64,000 nt of DNA from a virus. The position numbers and the translations under genes are program-made. Under the pieces are notes generated by a model. That model was not told the origin of the DNA. It made no database searches and saw only the letters and a list, made by a program, of their open reading frames with translations. The stretch lies in the UHGV virus genome UHGV-0293664, one strand, 5' to 3'. Every line of letters starts with the position of its first letter. Position 1 is the first letter of the stretch. Of the stretch, positions 28,634 to 34,924 are shown piece after piece.

Positions 28634-28659
28634 CCCTGCCCGAAAGGGTGGGGCTTTTT
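28634..28659 (+). terminator. intrinsic terminator with GAAA tetraloop (copy 1 of 2)
   Basis: CCCTGCCC-GAAA-GGGTGGGG then CTTTTT; same hairpin at 39347. Confidence 0.75.
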
Positions 28660-28677: not shown

Positions 28678-29289
28678 TTGAAATTTATATACAAAGAACA
28701 CTACCACAAAGGTGTTGTGTGGAGTCTATTTGACGGGTCTGGTGGTGCAGTCATTGACTGGGCAAAAGCTGGGTACCTGTGCCTGTGCTTTAATGCAGAA
28801 GGTGCTGATCACGGCAGTTATGCAGAGGTGATCACCGATCATCCCAACATTCACTATGTTGATTATTGGATTGACCCATGGTTCCCTCAGGAAACTTTTT
28901 GCATGTACCCAGCTCCAGACTTTATTCTTGCATTTCCTCCGTGCACGCATTTAGCGGTGTCAGGTGCTGCACATTTTAAGAAAAAGCTGGCTAAGGACCC
29001 CCTGATCCAAATTAATGCTGTAAAGGATGCTCGGGTTGCGGAAGAGCTGGGAGAGATTTACGATTGCCCGTGGCATGTAGAGAATCCTGTGGGTGTTATG
29101 TCCACACTGTGGCGCAAACCTGTCCCGCAAATAGTTGACGTGGTTAGCGGGTATTCCATGCAACACGCCAAGCTGGGTGGAAAGAGTGCAAGAACGAAGA
29201 TGATTCGAAGCCTCACACCACGTGGCTGGGCAAAAGCCGTATTCTTAGCAAACGAGCCTGTAGTAAGGAGCAGAATTAATGGGAAGTAA
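28678..29289 (+). CDS. DNA cytosine-5 methyltransferase-like protein (catalytic core only)
   Basis: Motif I LFDGSGG...AG; motif IV FPPCTHLAVSG (PC dipeptide); motif VI HVENPVG; start uncertain (TTG 28678 after AGGAG; track start 28648 lies inside terminator). Confidence 0.7.
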   Translation: MKFIYKEHYHKGVVWSLFDGSGGAVIDWAKAGYLCLCFNAEGADHGSYAEVITDHPNIHYVDYWIDPWFPQETFCMYPAPDFILAFPPCTHLAVSGAAHFKKKLAKDPLIQINAVKDARVAEELGEIYDCPWHVENPVGVMSTLWRKPVPQIVDVVSGYSMQHAKLGGKSARTKMIRSLTPRGWAKAVFLANEPVVRSRINGK

Positions 29290-31357
29290 ATTTATGGCAT
29301 CTGCATACAACCGTTTCGGCGAGCCAAACCCGAAAGCAACTAAGTATAAAAGTGGGGGAAGTGTGAAACGAGACTATCGTGATGAAAAAGAAGTTGAAAC
29401 TGTAGAGACTGTTTTAGAAAATACTAAAATTGTCCCTGTCCCACAACAGAATATCGGTCTGATGGCTGCACAATATTTTGGTGTGCGATCAGCATTGTCC
29501 CAAGAAGACGGTGTGACAGTCACTGCAACATATTTCCCATATTACGACCGCTACGGAAATCTGTCCGGTTTCAAAAAGCGTGACTGGACTATTCCTAAAG
29601 AGCAAAGGGGCCATTTCTCCGTTGTTGGCATCGTAAAGGCCAACTCCCAGATGTTTGGTCAAAAGCTGTGTGCATCTTCCAACAACCGTAAGCAGATCAA
29701 CGTTTGTGAGGGAGAAGGTGATGTTATTGCAGCATGGCAGGCTGCATATCAGATACAAGTAAAAGGGATTCTCACCAATGCTAAAGCCCCGGCAAAGGTG
29801 AAGCAGTGGGCTAAAGAGGTCCAGGACGGGATCGATGCAGTTATCAACGGCGGTGATCTGGCAGGAAAACCCTGCCTGCCTTTTGTTGGAATTAACTGTG
29901 GATGTGCAAACGCAGTAGATACTTTTGCAAACAATGAGAAGTTTATCCGTAGCTATGGAACAGTTGTGCTGGCAATGGATAACGATGCAGCTAACGAGGT
30001 AGAGAAGCAAAAACACGTCATTAAAGGTGTTGAGGCCACGCACAATATCGCAGCATTTTTAATGGCTGATAACGTTTACCACGTAGAATACCCTGGTGAA
30101 GTAAACGACCCTGACGGTGTAAAAGATATCCGAGACATGCTGAAGGCTAAAAAGCTGGAAGATATTGTCAACATGTTCCGGCATCCTGTTAAATATGTGC
30201 CTGATGCTGTGTCGGATTTAGAAGACTTCTCTATCGAGTCTTTGCGGAAAAAGACTTCCAACGGGGTAGATATCAGTGCAGAGTTCCCAAAACTGCAAAA
30301 AATGCTAAAAGGCTTGCACAAAGGGACACTTGTAATGCTTACAGGTCCATCAGGCGGCGGTAAAACAACCGTGGCTAAAAAACTGGAACACTGTATTGCA
30401 AGATACCTAATGGACCCGACATGCCAGAAGGCTGATGACTATGAAGAGGATGATCGTCTATGTATGATCCATCTTGAGGAGGACCCAGAGGAAGCAATTA
30501 ACTCCTTGTATGCAAACCAGTTAGGGTTTGATGTTAAAGAGTTTGTTGAAGATCCTAGCCAGTTTTTAACTGATCAAGAACACGCAGAGATTCACCAATC
30601 ATGGGCAAAAGCTGGAAAAATCAAAGTGTTCAAACATTTCGGATCTATTCCGGTGGACGAGTTGATTACCAAGCTTAAGCAAATGGTTTGCCTGTACCAT
30701 TGCCGTTATATTGTGCTGGATCACCTGTCCATGGTAATTTCAGGGCTTAATGTTAAGGATGAGCGAAAAGAACTGGACATGGCTATGACTCAGCTGGCTG
30801 CGTTTTGTAAGCAGTTTAACGTGTTTATCTTGGTGATCGCTCACCTCAAACGTACAGAGATTGTGCCTCCTAAGGACAAGGATGGTAACCCGTTACCTTT
30901 CTGGTATCCTGTGCGAAAAGAGAATTTGCGAGGATCGGCGGGGCTTGAACAGTTGAGTTGGGTAGTCATAGGTGTCGAGGCCGAAGAAATGGTGGATCGT
31001 TCTCGTGGACGTGTCCGTCTGGTAGGTCTTAAAAACCGTCCAGCAAAAACTCTAGGTATTGCTGACACTTTGGTTATGGACCCGCACACAGGTAAGTTCC
31101 ATGATGCCAGTAATTGGTACTGGGACAAAGAAATGCAAATGTTTACAGACGGAGAAGGTGGGGAGGTTGTTTGGAGACCTCAGGCTATGTTTGAGGATCA
31201 GGAGCATGCAGTTGTAGAAACACCTATGGGCAAGGTTGTGGCTGATAAGGTTGTAACTCCTACTGTTAAGTCTGTTGACACGCAGGAAGACCTCCAGTAC
31301 GATGATCCATCCTCTGACCCGGTCCCCGGTTTTGAGGATGATGAAACGCCTTTTTAA
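29279..31357 (+). CDS. bifunctional DNA primase-helicase (TOPRIM primase + DnaB-like helicase)
   Basis: 692 aa; TOPRIM-like CEGEGD and MDNDAANE; Walker A TGPSGGGKTT. Confidence 0.9.
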   Translation: MGSKFMASAYNRFGEPNPKATKYKSGGSVKRDYRDEKEVETVETVLENTKIVPVPQQNIGLMAAQYFGVRSALSQEDGVTVTATYFPYYDRYGNLSGFKKRDWTIPKEQRGHFSVVGIVKANSQMFGQKLCASSNNRKQINVCEGEGDVIAAWQAAYQIQVKGILTNAKAPAKVKQWAKEVQDGIDAVINGGDLAGKPCLPFVGINCGCANAVDTFANNEKFIRSYGTVVLAMDNDAANEVEKQKHVIKGVEATHNIAAFLMADNVYHVEYPGEVNDPDGVKDIRDMLKAKKLEDIVNMFRHPVKYVPDAVSDLEDFSIESLRKKTSNGVDISAEFPKLQKMLKGLHKGTLVMLTGPSGGGKTTVAKKLEHCIARYLMDPTCQKADDYEEDDRLCMIHLEEDPEEAINSLYANQLGFDVKEFVEDPSQFLTDQEHAEIHQSWAKAGKIKVFKHFGSIPVDELITKLKQMVCLYHCRYIVLDHLSMVISGLNVKDERKELDMAMTQLAAFCKQFNVFILVIAHLKRTEIVPPKDKDGNPLPFWYPVRKENLRGSAGLEQLSWVVIGVEAEEMVDRSRGRVRLVGLKNRPAKTLGIADTLVMDPHTGKFHDASNWYWDKEMQMFTDGEGGEVVWRPQAMFEDQEHAVVETPMGKVVADKVVTPTVKSVDTQEDLQYDDPSSDPVPGFEDDETPF

Positions 31358-31415
31358 TGTTTAACAAAGAGTGGGAGGGGTAGTACAACCGCCTCCCCTT
31401 TAAGGAGAACACTTC

Positions 31416-32150
31416 ATGAACGAGTTCAGAGATCACTGTGTAGCCAATCACTTGTGGTCAGAGATATTGGAGTATGACGGTCAAAATCTTTTTTGGAAGA
31501 TAGACATTCTGGCAGGTAGCGGTGTAGGATATGTTAAAACTTCAGCAGGCTCTAGAGCTGACAAGGGGCAAGATGCTGATGGCAGGCCTGTGGTCAGTCT
31601 AGGAAAGCATTGCACTAAAGGTGCCCACGTCATAATTTGGGAAATGTTTAACGGTCCTGTACCGGAAGGGTATGAGGTTGACCACATCAAGGAGATAAGA
31701 GAAACAGGTGGTGTGGCTGATAACAGTATTCAAAATTTGCAACTGCTCGAGCCTACAGATAACAAAAAGAAAAGTTGCAAGATACCTCGTAGTAACAACA
31801 AGTCTGGTAGGGTCGGGGTGCACTATTCTGAAGAAAGAGAGGCATGGATAGCTCAAGGCACAGATTCTGCAGGTGAAAGAGTCTGGCTAGGCCAGTACAG
31901 AACTTTTGAAGAGGCAGAGTGGGCAAGAAAGTTCTTCGAAGATAATGGTTTTTCGCACAAGAGTGGAAGAGCCGTGCAGTATAATAACACCAGCGGTTGC
32001 TCAGGGGTGAATTGGGATAAAACCCATGAAAGATGGGTAGCCAGAATTTATGTAGATGGTAAAAGGAAATGCCTTGGGTATTTCAAGAACAGAGAAGATG
32101 CAATAGCTGCAAGAAAGAGTGCTGAGAAGAAACAGGAGGAGACAGTATGA
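31416..32150 (+). CDS. HNH homing endonuclease with AP2-like DNA-binding domains
   Basis: 244 aa; HNH core EVDHIKE...N..NLQLL; two AP2-like repeats (GVHYSEEREAWIAQ..., GVNWDKTHERWVARIYVDGKRKCLGYF). Confidence 0.85.
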   Translation: MNEFRDHCVANHLWSEILEYDGQNLFWKIDILAGSGVGYVKTSAGSRADKGQDADGRPVVSLGKHCTKGAHVIIWEMFNGPVPEGYEVDHIKEIRETGGVADNSIQNLQLLEPTDNKKKSCKIPRSNNKSGRVGVHYSEEREAWIAQGTDSAGERVWLGQYRTFEEAEWARKFFEDNGFSHKSGRAVQYNNTSGCSGVNWDKTHERWVARIYVDGKRKCLGYFKNREDAIAARKSAEKKQEETV

Positions 32151-34924
32151 GTAATTGGTGCTTCGACTTGGAGGCCTCCGGGCTTTTGGAAGACCCAGAT
32201 CTTTATTATCACTGCGGTCTGTTTAAAGAGCTGAATAAGAACCGTTTTATGCTGTTCCTTCCTCTAAATGACCGCACACACTACTCCGAGGAGGATATAG
32301 AGAAGGCTAAGAACTTTATTCTGGCAAAGAAAACTCTTTATAAAGATTTTGAAGTTCGCATAGCAGATTTTTCGGAGTTGGAAGGTTGGCTTACAGGCAA
32401 TTCCGACTGGTCACCAACAGCTTTGAACTGCCATAACTGCTACAGTTATGACTTTATGCTAATGGAAAGATTGTCCGGTATTCATTTTGATATGTTCCGT
32501 GATCCTAAATGCATGGGGACTATCAACGACCACCAGGTTAACCTGTTTGATACGTTGGCGATGAGCCGAATCTTGTGGCCTGATCGCCCTTTACCAAAAG
32601 GTTGTCCGGACTCTGTATTCAACCCGGTTACTAAGAAAATGCAGCCTGTTGGTCCTCACGGCCTTATGGCATGGGGCTACGCCCTTGGTAACCAGAAAGT
32701 TCAAATTGATGACTGGCGTGATCTTCCGTTGTGGAAGTATGTGGATCGTGTATTCGAGGACGTTATCATCCAAGAGCTGCTCTGGAAAGAGCTGGTAGCG
32801 GAATCAAAAGGTGTATTCTACGGCAAATCTGACATGCAGAACTTTATGTACGATCCTGCCAAAGAGAAGCCGAAAGGGTTCAAGAAGATCACCTGGAAGA
32901 ACGCATTACGCCGAGGCATGCTGCAGCACTTCCTGATGGAGCTGCAGGCCCGTCAGGGTGTGTATTTCGACATAGATGGAGCTATTGCTTTACGTGACCG
33001 TTGCGATGCGTGGATGAAAGAGATCGCTGATCGTGTTGAACCTCAACTTCCTTTAAAAGAGTTGTCAATGTCTCAGCGGCCCAAGTTCCCTGAAAAGCCG
33101 TTTAACCAAGATGGGACAATCTCCAATAATGGTTGGAAATGGTTAAAAGATAAGCTTGGCTATCCTGTGGACATGAGCGCTTTAGAGTTCAAAGCCCCGC
33201 CTAAGCGAGCATTTACCTCCACAGGGGATGTCAGTAAGATGGGGATAAAGTGGTGTGAAGAGATGGGCTGCAAAGACCCAGATAAGATGGCTGATTTCTT
33301 GAGAGGCTATATTAAGGGCACCTCCACACCACAACCTTTACCTAAAGAGCTAATGGATCAGGCAATAAGTGATCTACAGCAGAAGCGAATGCCGGACTGC
33401 AAGATACCTATGAAAATCAGCAATCAGGACGACATTAAGAGATACCTGATCAGTGCTGGTTGGCTTCCGACAATGTGGAGAACTAAGGATGTAACTAAAG
33501 ACAGCAAGAAGAAAGCTCTACCTGATGCAGATGTTGATGCACGAGTGTATGCATATATGGACGAGCTTTTAGAGTCAGAGTATTGTGACCTAATTATCAA
33601 CTTCTGGAACAAAACTGATGCTAAGTTCCAGACAACCGTGCACAAGTTCCGAAGCTTTCCTAACTCTGAAAGGATTAAAAAGGAAGTATTCGGGAAAATA
33701 CGTAGAAAAGCTAGGACACTTATTACTTCTCCGCAGCTGAAAGATACGTTTGGACACCTATGCCCGAATCTTGAAAAATTGAACGGGGAGATGGCTAAAG
33801 ATATCGTCTTGTGGTTATCATTGCGAAACCGCAGATCGGTCCTTGATCCAATCAAGGAGGATAAGGTTGATACTGGTCTTCTTAATCACCCACGTTTGAA
33901 GATTGACCATAAGCTTCCGGCTAAAAGCTCTGGATTAACAAACACTTCCAGACAGAAACACAGTATTTGTGCAAACATGCCTAAACCATCTCCTAAAGTG
34001 GTTATGGGTAAAGAGATGCGCAGTCTGTGGGGTGTTCCTCCAGGATACTTTGAGATCGGTATTGACGGGTCCAACTTAGAGCAGCTTATCGGGGCTTGGG
34101 GTGCCTTTGAGTTCGACAACGGCTTGTATTATGATGTTGTAAGTAACGGGGACGCACACCAAAACAATGCTGAGGCATATACAAAAGTAGCAGGCAGAGA
34201 GGTGTCTCGTAACGACGGTAAACCTATCACGTATGGGGTTATGTATGGGGCACAAAAAGACAAAGTTGCAGACATGCTGGATATCTCCCCAGAGTTGGGA
34301 CAAAGGGTAATCGATGCACTTTGGGATGCCAACCCCGGTCTTAAGGGGCGTAAAGAAGATCTGGAGAAATTCTGGGAAGCAACGGGTAAGAAGTTTATCT
34401 ACTCTTTTGATGGTCATGCTATCTGGACCCGATCTAAACACTCTTTACTTAATGCATACCAACAGAATGGTGGTGCATCGTTGTGTGACTTAGTTGGGAT
34501 ACTCATGCACCACCAAATGGTGAAGCGCGGGTGGTACGATGAAGGTGTTCGTCGTATTATTTATTACCATGACGAATATCAGCTTCAAGTCCCTGACACA
34601 CCTAAGTATAAGACTGTGTACACCTTCGACACAATTGAAGAACTGGAAGCATTTAAGGCAGAGCAGGAGGCCAAACTTCATGTGTTCGACGGTCATAAGT
34701 ACAAAAAGGCACGCAAGGATGAGGACGGAAACGAAGTGGTTGACAGAGACGGAAACACGGTGTACGATCCTATCCTGAACGATGACGGAAAGCTTGAACT
34801 TATCTGGAGCCCTGTGGGTGAAATGGTGGTGCATTGCTTCTGGCAAGCTTCTAAAATGATGGGAGTCCCGTTCCAGATCACAGGTGAATACTTGTGCGGT
34901 CGTAATTGGGGTGATTGTCACTAA
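32147..34924 (+). CDS. DNA polymerase, family A, with 3'-5' exonuclease domain
   Basis: 925 aa; exo I-like FDLEASG; motif A-like IDGSNLEQL; O-helix-like KPITYGVMYG; motif C YYHDEYQL. Confidence 0.9.
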   Translation: MSNWCFDLEASGLLEDPDLYYHCGLFKELNKNRFMLFLPLNDRTHYSEEDIEKAKNFILAKKTLYKDFEVRIADFSELEGWLTGNSDWSPTALNCHNCYSYDFMLMERLSGIHFDMFRDPKCMGTINDHQVNLFDTLAMSRILWPDRPLPKGCPDSVFNPVTKKMQPVGPHGLMAWGYALGNQKVQIDDWRDLPLWKYVDRVFEDVIIQELLWKELVAESKGVFYGKSDMQNFMYDPAKEKPKGFKKITWKNALRRGMLQHFLMELQARQGVYFDIDGAIALRDRCDAWMKEIADRVEPQLPLKELSMSQRPKFPEKPFNQDGTISNNGWKWLKDKLGYPVDMSALEFKAPPKRAFTSTGDVSKMGIKWCEEMGCKDPDKMADFLRGYIKGTSTPQPLPKELMDQAISDLQQKRMPDCKIPMKISNQDDIKRYLISAGWLPTMWRTKDVTKDSKKKALPDADVDARVYAYMDELLESEYCDLIINFWNKTDAKFQTTVHKFRSFPNSERIKKEVFGKIRRKARTLITSPQLKDTFGHLCPNLEKLNGEMAKDIVLWLSLRNRRSVLDPIKEDKVDTGLLNHPRLKIDHKLPAKSSGLTNTSRQKHSICANMPKPSPKVVMGKEMRSLWGVPPGYFEIGIDGSNLEQLIGAWGAFEFDNGLYYDVVSNGDAHQNNAEAYTKVAGREVSRNDGKPITYGVMYGAQKDKVADMLDISPELGQRVIDALWDANPGLKGRKEDLEKFWEATGKKFIYSFDGHAIWTRSKHSLLNAYQQNGGASLCDLVGILMHHQMVKRGWYDEGVRRIIYYHDEYQLQVPDTPKYKTVYTFDTIEELEAFKAEQEAKLHVFDGHKYKKARKDEDGNEVVDRDGNTVYDPILNDDGKLELIWSPVGEMVVHCFWQASKMMGVPFQITGEYLCGRNWGDCH

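Follow-up and report, generated by a model that had tools for sequence, protein, structure and literature searches.

The 64,000-nucleotide (nt) stretch of the virus genome UHGV-0293664 analyzed here (the window) carries, between its DNA primase/helicase and family-A DNA polymerase genes, a free-standing open reading frame (ORF) on the + strand (31416–32150). It starts with ATG and encodes a 244-amino-acid (aa) protein in which an HNH nuclease domain is followed by two AP2-like repeats. The window phage is a Vequintavirus, an rV5-like Escherichia coli phage, and the region is 96–98% identical to that of rV5-like coliphages. A preliminary description of this DNA had placed a free-standing endonuclease gene between the two replication genes and had it overlap the polymerase start by four nucleotides; this anatomy proved exact to the coordinate. 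Comparison of filled and empty sites among relatives makes it highly probable, on sequence grounds, that the gene is an HNH-AP2 homing endonuclease gene that moves by intronless homing, with the start of the polymerase gene as its probable target. The features of the locus are collected in Table 1.

Table 1. Features of the primase/helicase–polymerase junction in the window
Feature	Position	Strand	Evidence or remarks
DNA primase/helicase gene, 692 aa (upstream flank)	29279–31357	+	PHROG phrog_239, E = 9e-160; Pfam DnaB_C and AAA_25
G+C-rich stem-loop	31373–31397 (extended pairing 31368–31401)	+	5′ of AAGGAG, after the primase/helicase stop
Shine–Dalgarno sequence AAGGAG	31402–31407	+	8 nt 5′ of the endonuclease ATG
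Putative free-standing homing endonuclease gene	31416–32150	+	N-terminal region, HNH_3 core, then two AP2-like repeats
HNH (beta-beta-alpha-metal) nuclease core, residues 68–120	31617–31775	+	Pfam HNH_3, conserved residues, model
AP2-like repeat 1, residues ~129–177	31800–31946	+	Internal repeat; Pfam AP2 19.5 bits, below cut-off
AP2-like repeat 2, residues ~192–240	31989–32135	+	Pfam AP2 (residues 194–222); WRI1 profile match; Foldseek
New polymerase Shine–Dalgarno sequence AGGAGGAG	32134–32141	+	Within the final endonuclease codons
Family-A DNA polymerase gene, 925 aa (downstream flank)	32147–34924	+	phrog_8888, E = 3e-143; phrog_17, E = 4e-98
First 16 polymerase codons, MSNWCFDLEASGLLED, including the ExoI D-x-E motif	32147–32195	+	Divergence hotspot; proposed target/immunity region

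The junction is tightly built. The endonuclease ATG lies 58 nt past the primase/helicase stop, and its TGA (32148–32150) shares the four nucleotides ATGA (32147–32150) with the polymerase ATG (32147–32149), in the context ACAGTATGAGT. Downstream of this overlap the polymerase ORF of the window phage is uninterrupted, and Pfam DNA_pol_A scores it at 31.8 bits, slightly under the cut-off. In genomes with an empty site, the polymerase ATG takes the position of the window's endonuclease ATG, with the same 58-nt spacing from the primase/helicase stop, so that the initiation signals used by the cassette are those that formerly served the polymerase. Indeed, alignment of filled and empty alleles shows that AAGGAG serves the polymerase ATG of gene-less phages at equal spacing, and the same hexamer is the annotated ribosome-binding site of the polymerase in phage Murica. 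In its place, the cassette brings AGGAGGAG, which together with the ATGA overlap would permit, and suggests, translational coupling of the polymerase to the endonuclease. Four distant copies of the gene, found in the protein database at 84, 81, 68, and 65% identity in metagenomic phage contigs (loci L020, L021, L023, and L024, respectively), all occupy the identical slot with the identical 4-nt polymerase overlap, and the GGAGG ahead of the overlap is kept in the first three.

The stem-loop between the primase/helicase stop and AAGGAG has the arms GGGAGGGGT and ACC-GCCTCCC on either side of its loop, and folds as RNA at −22.8 kcal/mol (z = −3.1). It is invariant among close relatives, endonuclease present or absent, and is kept in the distant loci with compensatory changes in three of nine pairs; it is part of the landing site and not of the mobile cassette. 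Because it has no T-run, it is probably no terminator. A promoter and terminator scan of 30800–32600 returned none beyond shuffle expectation and did not call this hairpin a terminator. It may instead stabilize or regulate the mRNA, or be a DNA recognition element for the AP2 repeats. Over the whole window, no tRNA gene and no Rfam family at gathering score was detected, and tblastn found no paralogue of the endonuclease elsewhere in it. An intron or intein origin of the gene was ruled out, both by the lack of any Rfam match in the window, group I introns included, and by the position of the gene between the stop at 31357 and the start at 32147, with the polymerase ORF beginning downstream.

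The identification of the protein as an HNH endonuclease, made in the preliminary description from the letters alone, was borne out by profile searches. Pfam HNH_3 (PF13392) matches residues 68–116 with 45.6 bits, where the cut-off is 24.8 (E = 5.3e-12), and of 15 matching PHROG families all 13 that bear a description are HNH endonucleases (best phrog_99, E = 3.8e-52). The motif reads EVDH(90)IKEIRETGGVADN(103)SIQN(107)LQLLEPTDN(116), residue 103 being the N of ADN, with D89-H90, N103, N107, and N116 conserved. H71, H90, N107, and N116 are invariant in a family alignment of homologues 35–97% identical, which reaches as far as a 35% identical paralogue, and N103 is invariant among orthologues. 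An AlphaFold model places strands at residues 87–91 and 106–111 and a helix at 113–122 in this region, at low confidence. By profile and conserved residues, the protein belongs to the HNH, or His-Me finger, nucleases, and would be expected to cleave DNA in a metal-dependent manner.

The two AP2-like repeats that follow, also part of the preliminary description, are recognizable first from each other, being 39% identical (E = 3e-7). Pfam AP2 (PF00847) scores the single repeats at 19.5 and 21.6 bits. A family profile matches the tandem-AP2 protein WRI1 (WRINKLED1, 7wq5) with both repeats aligned (E = 8e-6), and gives weak matches of repeat 1 to ERF096 and AtERF1. The AlphaFold model was built on a shallow alignment of nine sequences, and only its secondary structure and AP2 part were used. 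It shows three strands and a helix in each repeat: residues 135–138, 143–149, and 155–161 followed by helix 164–177 in repeat 1, and residues 198–201, 206–213, and 216–223 followed by helix 226–243 in repeat 2 (predicted local distance difference test, pLDDT, 65–89 over the repeat 2 unit, 81–89 in the elements listed). Foldseek matches these units to the DNA-bound tandem AP2 of WRI1 (7wq5, E = 1.3e-3), to TEM1, and to Plasmodium AP2 domains; its matches beyond AP2 proteins were dismissed as noise. The assignment of an HNH domain with two AP2-like repeats is thus correct, the AP2 part resting on sub-threshold Pfam scores that are backed by the internal repetition, the family profile, and the fold. 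With 35.5 bits, the L024 paralogue is above the Pfam AP2 cut-off. Within the family, the linker between the repeats (31906–31966) occurs in two unrelated forms, …EWARKFFEDNGFSHKSGRAVQY… and …AAARESFENNTWVKPERRVKQW…, which are shuffled among otherwise similar endonuclease copies and therefore point to recombination between endonuclease variants.

The distribution of the gene among close relatives is that of an insertion at one exact site. A tblastn search found the endonuclease in 10 records, representing eight phages (JES2013, O157 typing phage 4, HdK5, navn, C2, C5, WalterGehring, and FFH2), at 96.7–98% aa identity, with all remaining matches below 60%. When the region 31100–32500 was searched by blastn, 121 records were returned, and the same 10 cover the full query; among the matches listed, non-carriers align in two pieces that span 670 nt of the record instead of 1401. 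The insertion measures 731 nt (5646 − 4915; 1401 − 670). The ~110 related records with an empty site have nothing else in the slot, and their ribosome-binding site and polymerase ATG are undisturbed. A pattern scan of IMG/VR for the landing site yielded two contigs only, both empty. The endonuclease gene is therefore an insertion polymorphism among close relatives, as the preliminary description had expected: the site is filled in 10 of ~121 records and shorter by 731 nt in the others, and the gene is patchy rather than universal and carries a clear HNH_3 match. The element as such is already known, since GenBank labels near-identical copies "putative homing endonuclease," "HNH endonuclease," or "AP2 domain protein."

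Two of these record sets call for comment. The copy in HdK5 (MK373780, locus L007) is 1 nt shorter, frameshifted, and split into two annotated ORFs; this may be a sequencing artifact rather than gene decay, because the primase/helicase of the same record is broken into three ORFs. Separately, 16–17 GenBank records numbered MG0656xx and named "Campylobacter phage" (C2, C5, C12, A147, and others) are 95–98% identical to E. coli Vequintavirus in this region. The C2 record, the sole one opened, is flagged UNVERIFIED, has a Vequintavirus taxonomy line, and is unannotated. The Campylobacter host label of these records is probably wrong.

Inheritance of the gene is uncoupled from that of its surroundings. 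Across the full 5.6-kb primase–polymerase region of eight carriers and six non-carriers, differentiation between the two groups was confined to the intervals touching the cassette, about 100–200 nt (nucleotide divergence, dxy, of 0.09–0.10 vs. 0.02–0.03 within groups). In the cassette intervals, the nearest neighbor of a carrier is another carrier in 7–8 of eight cases, as opposed to 2–4 of eight in most other intervals, and outside ~200 nt of the cassette carriers do not form a clade. No record is identical to the window; over its first 25 kb the best match is 95.9%, and the closest relatives of that segment are without the endonuclease. The distant copies extend the comparison. In L020, the endonuclease is 84% identical to that of the window, against 73% for the primase/helicase and 74% for the polymerase; in L021, the figures are 81, 55, and 55%. 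In both, then, the endonuclease is more conserved than the genes that flank it. Synonymous divergence from L020 is 0.40 for the endonuclease, while the flanking genes are saturated, and the block of 82–98% nt identity with L020 runs from ~31400 to ~32146, that is, from one ORF border to the other. With L023, identity of ~90% is limited to the final ~180 nt of the gene plus ~40 nt at the start of the polymerase gene. These patterns identify the gene as horizontally mobile, and the uncoupled inheritance and short linked haplotype uphold the earlier reading of a mobile homing endonuclease, homing itself being the likely route.

The gene is also selectively maintained. The ratio of nonsynonymous to synonymous divergence (dN/dS) is 0.06–0.25 in all comparisons, and the ORF is intact in 11 of 12 copies (seven of eight close and four of four distant), HdK5 being the exception; these values indicate purifying selection. 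Strong purifying selection would also be expected of a nuclease retained for the benefit of the phage and not mainly for selfish spread, for instance one that cuts the polymerase region of competitors (marker exclusion) or of satellites, or one that controls polymerase expression through its AP2 repeats. Such domestication, which partly overlaps with homing, would fit the control that the gene exerts over the translation-initiation region of the essential polymerase, and has precedents in homing-endonuclease domains co-opted in phage–satellite conflicts (Barth et al., PMC10448857). However, most close relatives do without the gene, which is hence dispensable, and its presence is uncoupled from the remaining genome. 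The data do not tell an advantage for the host phage apart from selfish drive, and we consider domestication distinctly unlikely.

A further signature lies at the edge of the cassette. In an alignment of 20 sequences, which takes in 600 nt on the left side of the site and ~970 nt on its right, carriers diverge from non-carriers with a dxy of 0.03–0.05 in most 30-nt intervals and of 0.29–0.30 in those that cover the junction and the initial ~45 nt of the polymerase gene. Relative to the common rV5/Murica-type empty allele, which carries …AACTGTATATGAGCATGTGGTCGTTCGATTTTGAG… at the primase–polymerase junction, 16 of the 37 consensus differences counted over 1,564 shared columns fall within just 57 nt (31408–31415 plus 32147–32195; binomial P = 7e-17). 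The polymerase N-terminus accordingly comes in several versions: MSNWCFDLEASGLL in carriers, MSMWSFDFESSGLL in empty type A, MSMYSFDFEASGLL in empty type B (for example 241Ecol014PP and JEP1), and MSMWSFDFEASGLL, MSMWSFDLEASGLL, and MSMWNFDFEASGLL in other empty alleles. It contains a D-x-E (FDxE) sequence, the ExoI proofreading motif of family-A polymerases. Codon 3 (AAT, 32153–32155) and codon 5 (TGC, 32159–32161) set the window and its seven close carriers apart from every one of the 14 empty alleles examined; TGC at codon 5 is found in the distant carriers L020 and L023, but not in L021 and L024. Such a hotspot is what would be expected at the target of a homing endonuclease, a pattern that does not in itself identify the cleavage site.

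Several observations weigh against an active homing endonuclease directed at the polymerase start. As a whole, the AlphaFold model is of poor quality (mean pLDDT 59), with values below 50 over the HNH segment 91–105, and the AP2 score of the whole protein, 29.8 bits (E = 7.6e-7), stays under the gathering cut-off of 33.3. The hotspot is variable among non-carriers too, where it is the most variable region (nucleotide diversity, pi, 0.21), and the carrier haplotype is partly present in the empty alleles LL12, L025 (an IMG/VR contig), and type B. This prevents the "immunity" substitutions from being singled out, and they could in part be old conversion tracts instead of products of selection for resistance. 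Carriers are few (~8 of ~110 phages), so the element is not sweeping. In L023 (endonuclease 68%, primase/helicase 69–80%, polymerase 74% identical to the window) and L024 (65, 75, and 73%), the endonuclease is no closer than its flanks (65–68% vs. 69–80%), which fits vertical descent. Finally, we infer cleavage, specificity, and homing, for this protein as for any close homologue, from sequence.

The weak model over residues 91–105 might be taken to mean that the HNH core is inactive and the protein only an AP2 DNA-binding regulator. In the same vein, sequence searches matched no solved HNH structure, a single-protein search staying at chance level and the family profile finding AP2 proteins only. 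Nevertheless, the HNH_3 score is far over its cut-off, H90, N107, and N116 are invariant across the full range of homologues, and the distribution is typical of a mobile nuclease gene, all of which leaves a protein that is not a nuclease scarcely credible. The low carrier frequency and the vertical look of the L023 and L024 copies, about as diverged as their own flanks, would on the other hand suit a relic. On this account, the gene entered the slot a single time, in an ancestor, and has ceased to home; its patchiness stems from precise loss on repeated occasions and from ordinary homologous recombination among co-infecting phages, Vequintavirus genomes being strongly mosaic anyway. The frameshift in HdK5 would then be decay. 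Yet that frameshift is possibly a sequencing error, and the low dN/dS and the intact ORFs of the other copies speak against decay. In addition, the L020 and L021 endonucleases are clearly more similar than their flanks, in a block of identity that stops at the ORF borders, and the exact empty sites in ~110 records would be hard to produce by repeated independent deletions. A relic is accordingly very unlikely. The relic, the domesticated factor, and the inactive nuclease all fit the data less well than a homing endonuclease does.

If the gene is a homing endonuclease gene, its spread may be pictured as follows. A carrier and a non-carrier would co-infect one cell, and the endonuclease would bind the empty allele around the polymerase start, its two AP2 repeats holding the DNA while the HNH active site (H90/N103/N116) nicks it or makes a double-strand break. 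Recombinational repair off the carrier genome would then copy in the 731-nt cassette together with a short flank. The carrier allele itself would escape cleavage because the insertion splits the site and because polymerase codons 3–8 are altered (carrier MSNWCFDL vs. MSMWSFDF or MSMYSFDF), a presumptive self-immunity. On arrival, the cassette would take over the ribosome-binding site and start position of the polymerase, and supply the new Shine–Dalgarno sequence and the ATGA overlap, such that the essential polymerase would still be translated.

A bolder version of this scheme can be formulated. Polymerase identity drops to 55% among phages in which the endonuclease keeps its slot, so the element accommodates widely differing targets. 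In this version, the cassette, having replaced the polymerase initiation region, made polymerase expression dependent on endonuclease translation. The tandem AP2 repeats would recognize the DNA of the conserved hairpin together with the ExoI (FDxE) coding sequence, one possible basis for the breadth of targets, and repeated invasion and escape would drive the unusual amino-acid variability beside the proofreading site. If true, the dependence of the polymerase on endonuclease translation would penalize imprecise loss of the cassette. As a whole, this version is speculative and rather unlikely.

Free-standing homing endonucleases of this behavior are familiar from phage T4, where SegG, MobE, and their relatives are encoded intergenically between essential genes and practice intronless homing. 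They cut the neighboring gene in phages without them and spread by repair with co-conversion of the flanks, and the carriers are polymorphic at the target. The T4 Seg proteins, however, are GIY-YIG nucleases, the Mob proteins are HNH enzymes without AP2 repeats, and the genes they target differ from that of the window gene. Another familiar pair, I-HmuI and I-HmuII of phages SPO1 and SP82, are HNH endonucleases encoded by introns in phage DNA polymerase genes. Together with the intron HNH ORF of the window's relatives, they target conserved, catalytically important parts of the polymerase and lie inside self-splicing group I introns, whereas the window endonuclease gene is intergenic.

Closer parallels are provided by enzymes with the same domain pair. 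HNH-AP2 proteins are a described class of homing endonucleases (Magnani, Sjolander, & Hake, 2004, Plant Cell 16:2265, as cited in PMC10448857). In ICP1-like phages, the IPA-HNH genes encode AP2-associated HNH proteins and have a DNA polymerase gene as neighbor 29% of the time; the same work describes "islands" of these genes around essential genes (Barth et al., 2023, PMC10448857). Both groups have in common with the window gene an N-terminal HNH and a C-terminal AP2, a free-standing existence in phages, and frequent proximity to a polymerase gene. The HNH of IPA-HNH proteins is by definition too divergent for Pfam HNH_3, whereas in the window protein it is clearly detected, and there are two AP2 repeats instead of one. 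The window gene is thus not an IPA-HNH gene but of the canonical HNH_3-AP2 type. Within the Vequintavirinae, CB7_54 of Pectobacterium phage vB_PatM_CB7 (sister genus Certrevirus) is a free-standing gene of the HNH type at the 5′ end of the polymerase gene, shown by reverse-transcription PCR to be unspliced (Buttimer et al., 2020, PMC7344957). Like the window gene, it lies directly upstream of and overlaps the polymerase gene and encodes an HNH protein with an AP2 repeat. It differs in its size of 188 aa, its single AP2 repeat, its 23-nt overlap, and an upstream neighbor that is not a primase/helicase, and only its AP2 part is recognizably similar to the window protein (36% over 58 aa).

The nearest counterparts are the published Vequintavirus copies: Ec2_00211 of JES2013, ORF207 of FFH2, ECTP4_00442 ("AP2 domain protein") of O157 typing phage 4, navn_182, and bas51_0076 ("putative homing endonuclease") of WalterGehring. 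These share the slot and the 4-nt overlap at 96.7–98% aa identity and differ by point substitutions only, for example C-terminal RKSAEKKQEETV in the window vs. RKNAEKTQEETV. The literature search turned up no biochemical characterization of HNH-AP2 enzymes from these phages, near-identical copies included. The window element is an unremarkable example of an established class, to which the present analysis adds its exact anatomy, the junction hotspot, and evidence for transfer among distant phages.

Other elements are scattered around this locus in related phages. A second polymorphic site lies at 34570/34571, within motif C of the polymerase (codons YYH/DEYQ; loci L002–L004, L008, L010, L012, and L013). 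It holds an 842/843-nt insert with a 507-nt HNH ORF in FFH2, WalterGehring, I29, and phiWec189, and a 276/329-nt insert devoid of an ORF in C2, navn, and JLBYU08; the window allele is uninterrupted. Rfam identifies the insert of C2 as a group I intron (RF00028, 64.7 bits). All six combinations of the state of this site with presence or absence of HNH-AP2 occur, and therefore the two sites, 2.4 kb apart, assort freely.

A second peak of diversity is found at 30925–30990, in primase/helicase codons ~550–571 (…LRG/SAGLEQLSWVV…). There, about two dozen substitutions relative to the window are packed into ~66 nt in JEP1, FV3, and LL12, and a single one of them (I to V) is nonsynonymous. The peak straddles G552/S553 (nt 30934/30935), the site of in-frame inserts of ~320 aa in the primase/helicase of L021 and L023. 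By eye, these inserts bear the hallmarks of inteins (an initial Cys and a terminal …TGN followed by S, or by S or C when the primase/helicase and polymerase inserts of L021 and L023 are taken together); a Pfam search of the L021 and L023 primase/helicase and polymerase proteins returned no intein domains. The pattern at 30925–30990 resembles a trace left by intein homing and subsequent loss, or by escape of the target.

Additional insertions are present in the distant contigs. L023 has two intein-like inserts in its primase/helicase, one of them in the P-loop between GPSG and SGKT, and one in its polymerase. L020 and L021 have additional NUMOD4/HNH_3 genes downstream of the polymerase. In L024, a second HNH-AP2 gene, whose 223-aa product is 34% identical to the window endonuclease, sits between the methylase-like and primase/helicase genes, and a PIF1-type helicase contains intein and LAGLIDADG domains. 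The replication module of the window, for its part, carries only one selfish element, the HNH-AP2 gene. Upstream of the primase/helicase gene, the window encodes at 28678–29289 what is annotated in relatives as a Dcm-like C5 cytosine methyltransferase, in a form shorter by 153 nt (51 codons). The deletion is in-frame, with its junction at 29115/29116 between AAACCTG direct repeats, 3′ of the …HVENPVG… motif, and the full 765-nt gene is found in 12 of the 12 best-matching phage records. The start is probably the TTG at 28678 and not the GTG at 28648 chosen by the ORF finder. Pfam recognizes neither the full nor the shortened version.

The practical value of these findings lies mainly in annotation and phylogeny: the slot and its ~200-nt flanks should be masked in trees of Vequintavirus replication genes, and masking of regions rich in homing endonucleases has already been advised by the BASEL authors. 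Publicly available isolates with and without the gene, such as the BASEL phages WalterGehring and DrSchubert, constitute a convenient natural system, suited to measuring the homing, co-conversion tract length, and target immunity of an HNH-AP2 enzyme. For the biology of the group, the replication module of these phages emerges as a small island of selfish elements. Across the group, it harbors the HNH-AP2 gene where the polymerase begins; in polymerase motif C, a group I intron that may or may not contain an HNH ORF; inteins in the genes for the primase/helicase, the polymerase, and the PIF1 helicase; and, in L024, a second HNH-AP2 gene upstream of the primase/helicase.

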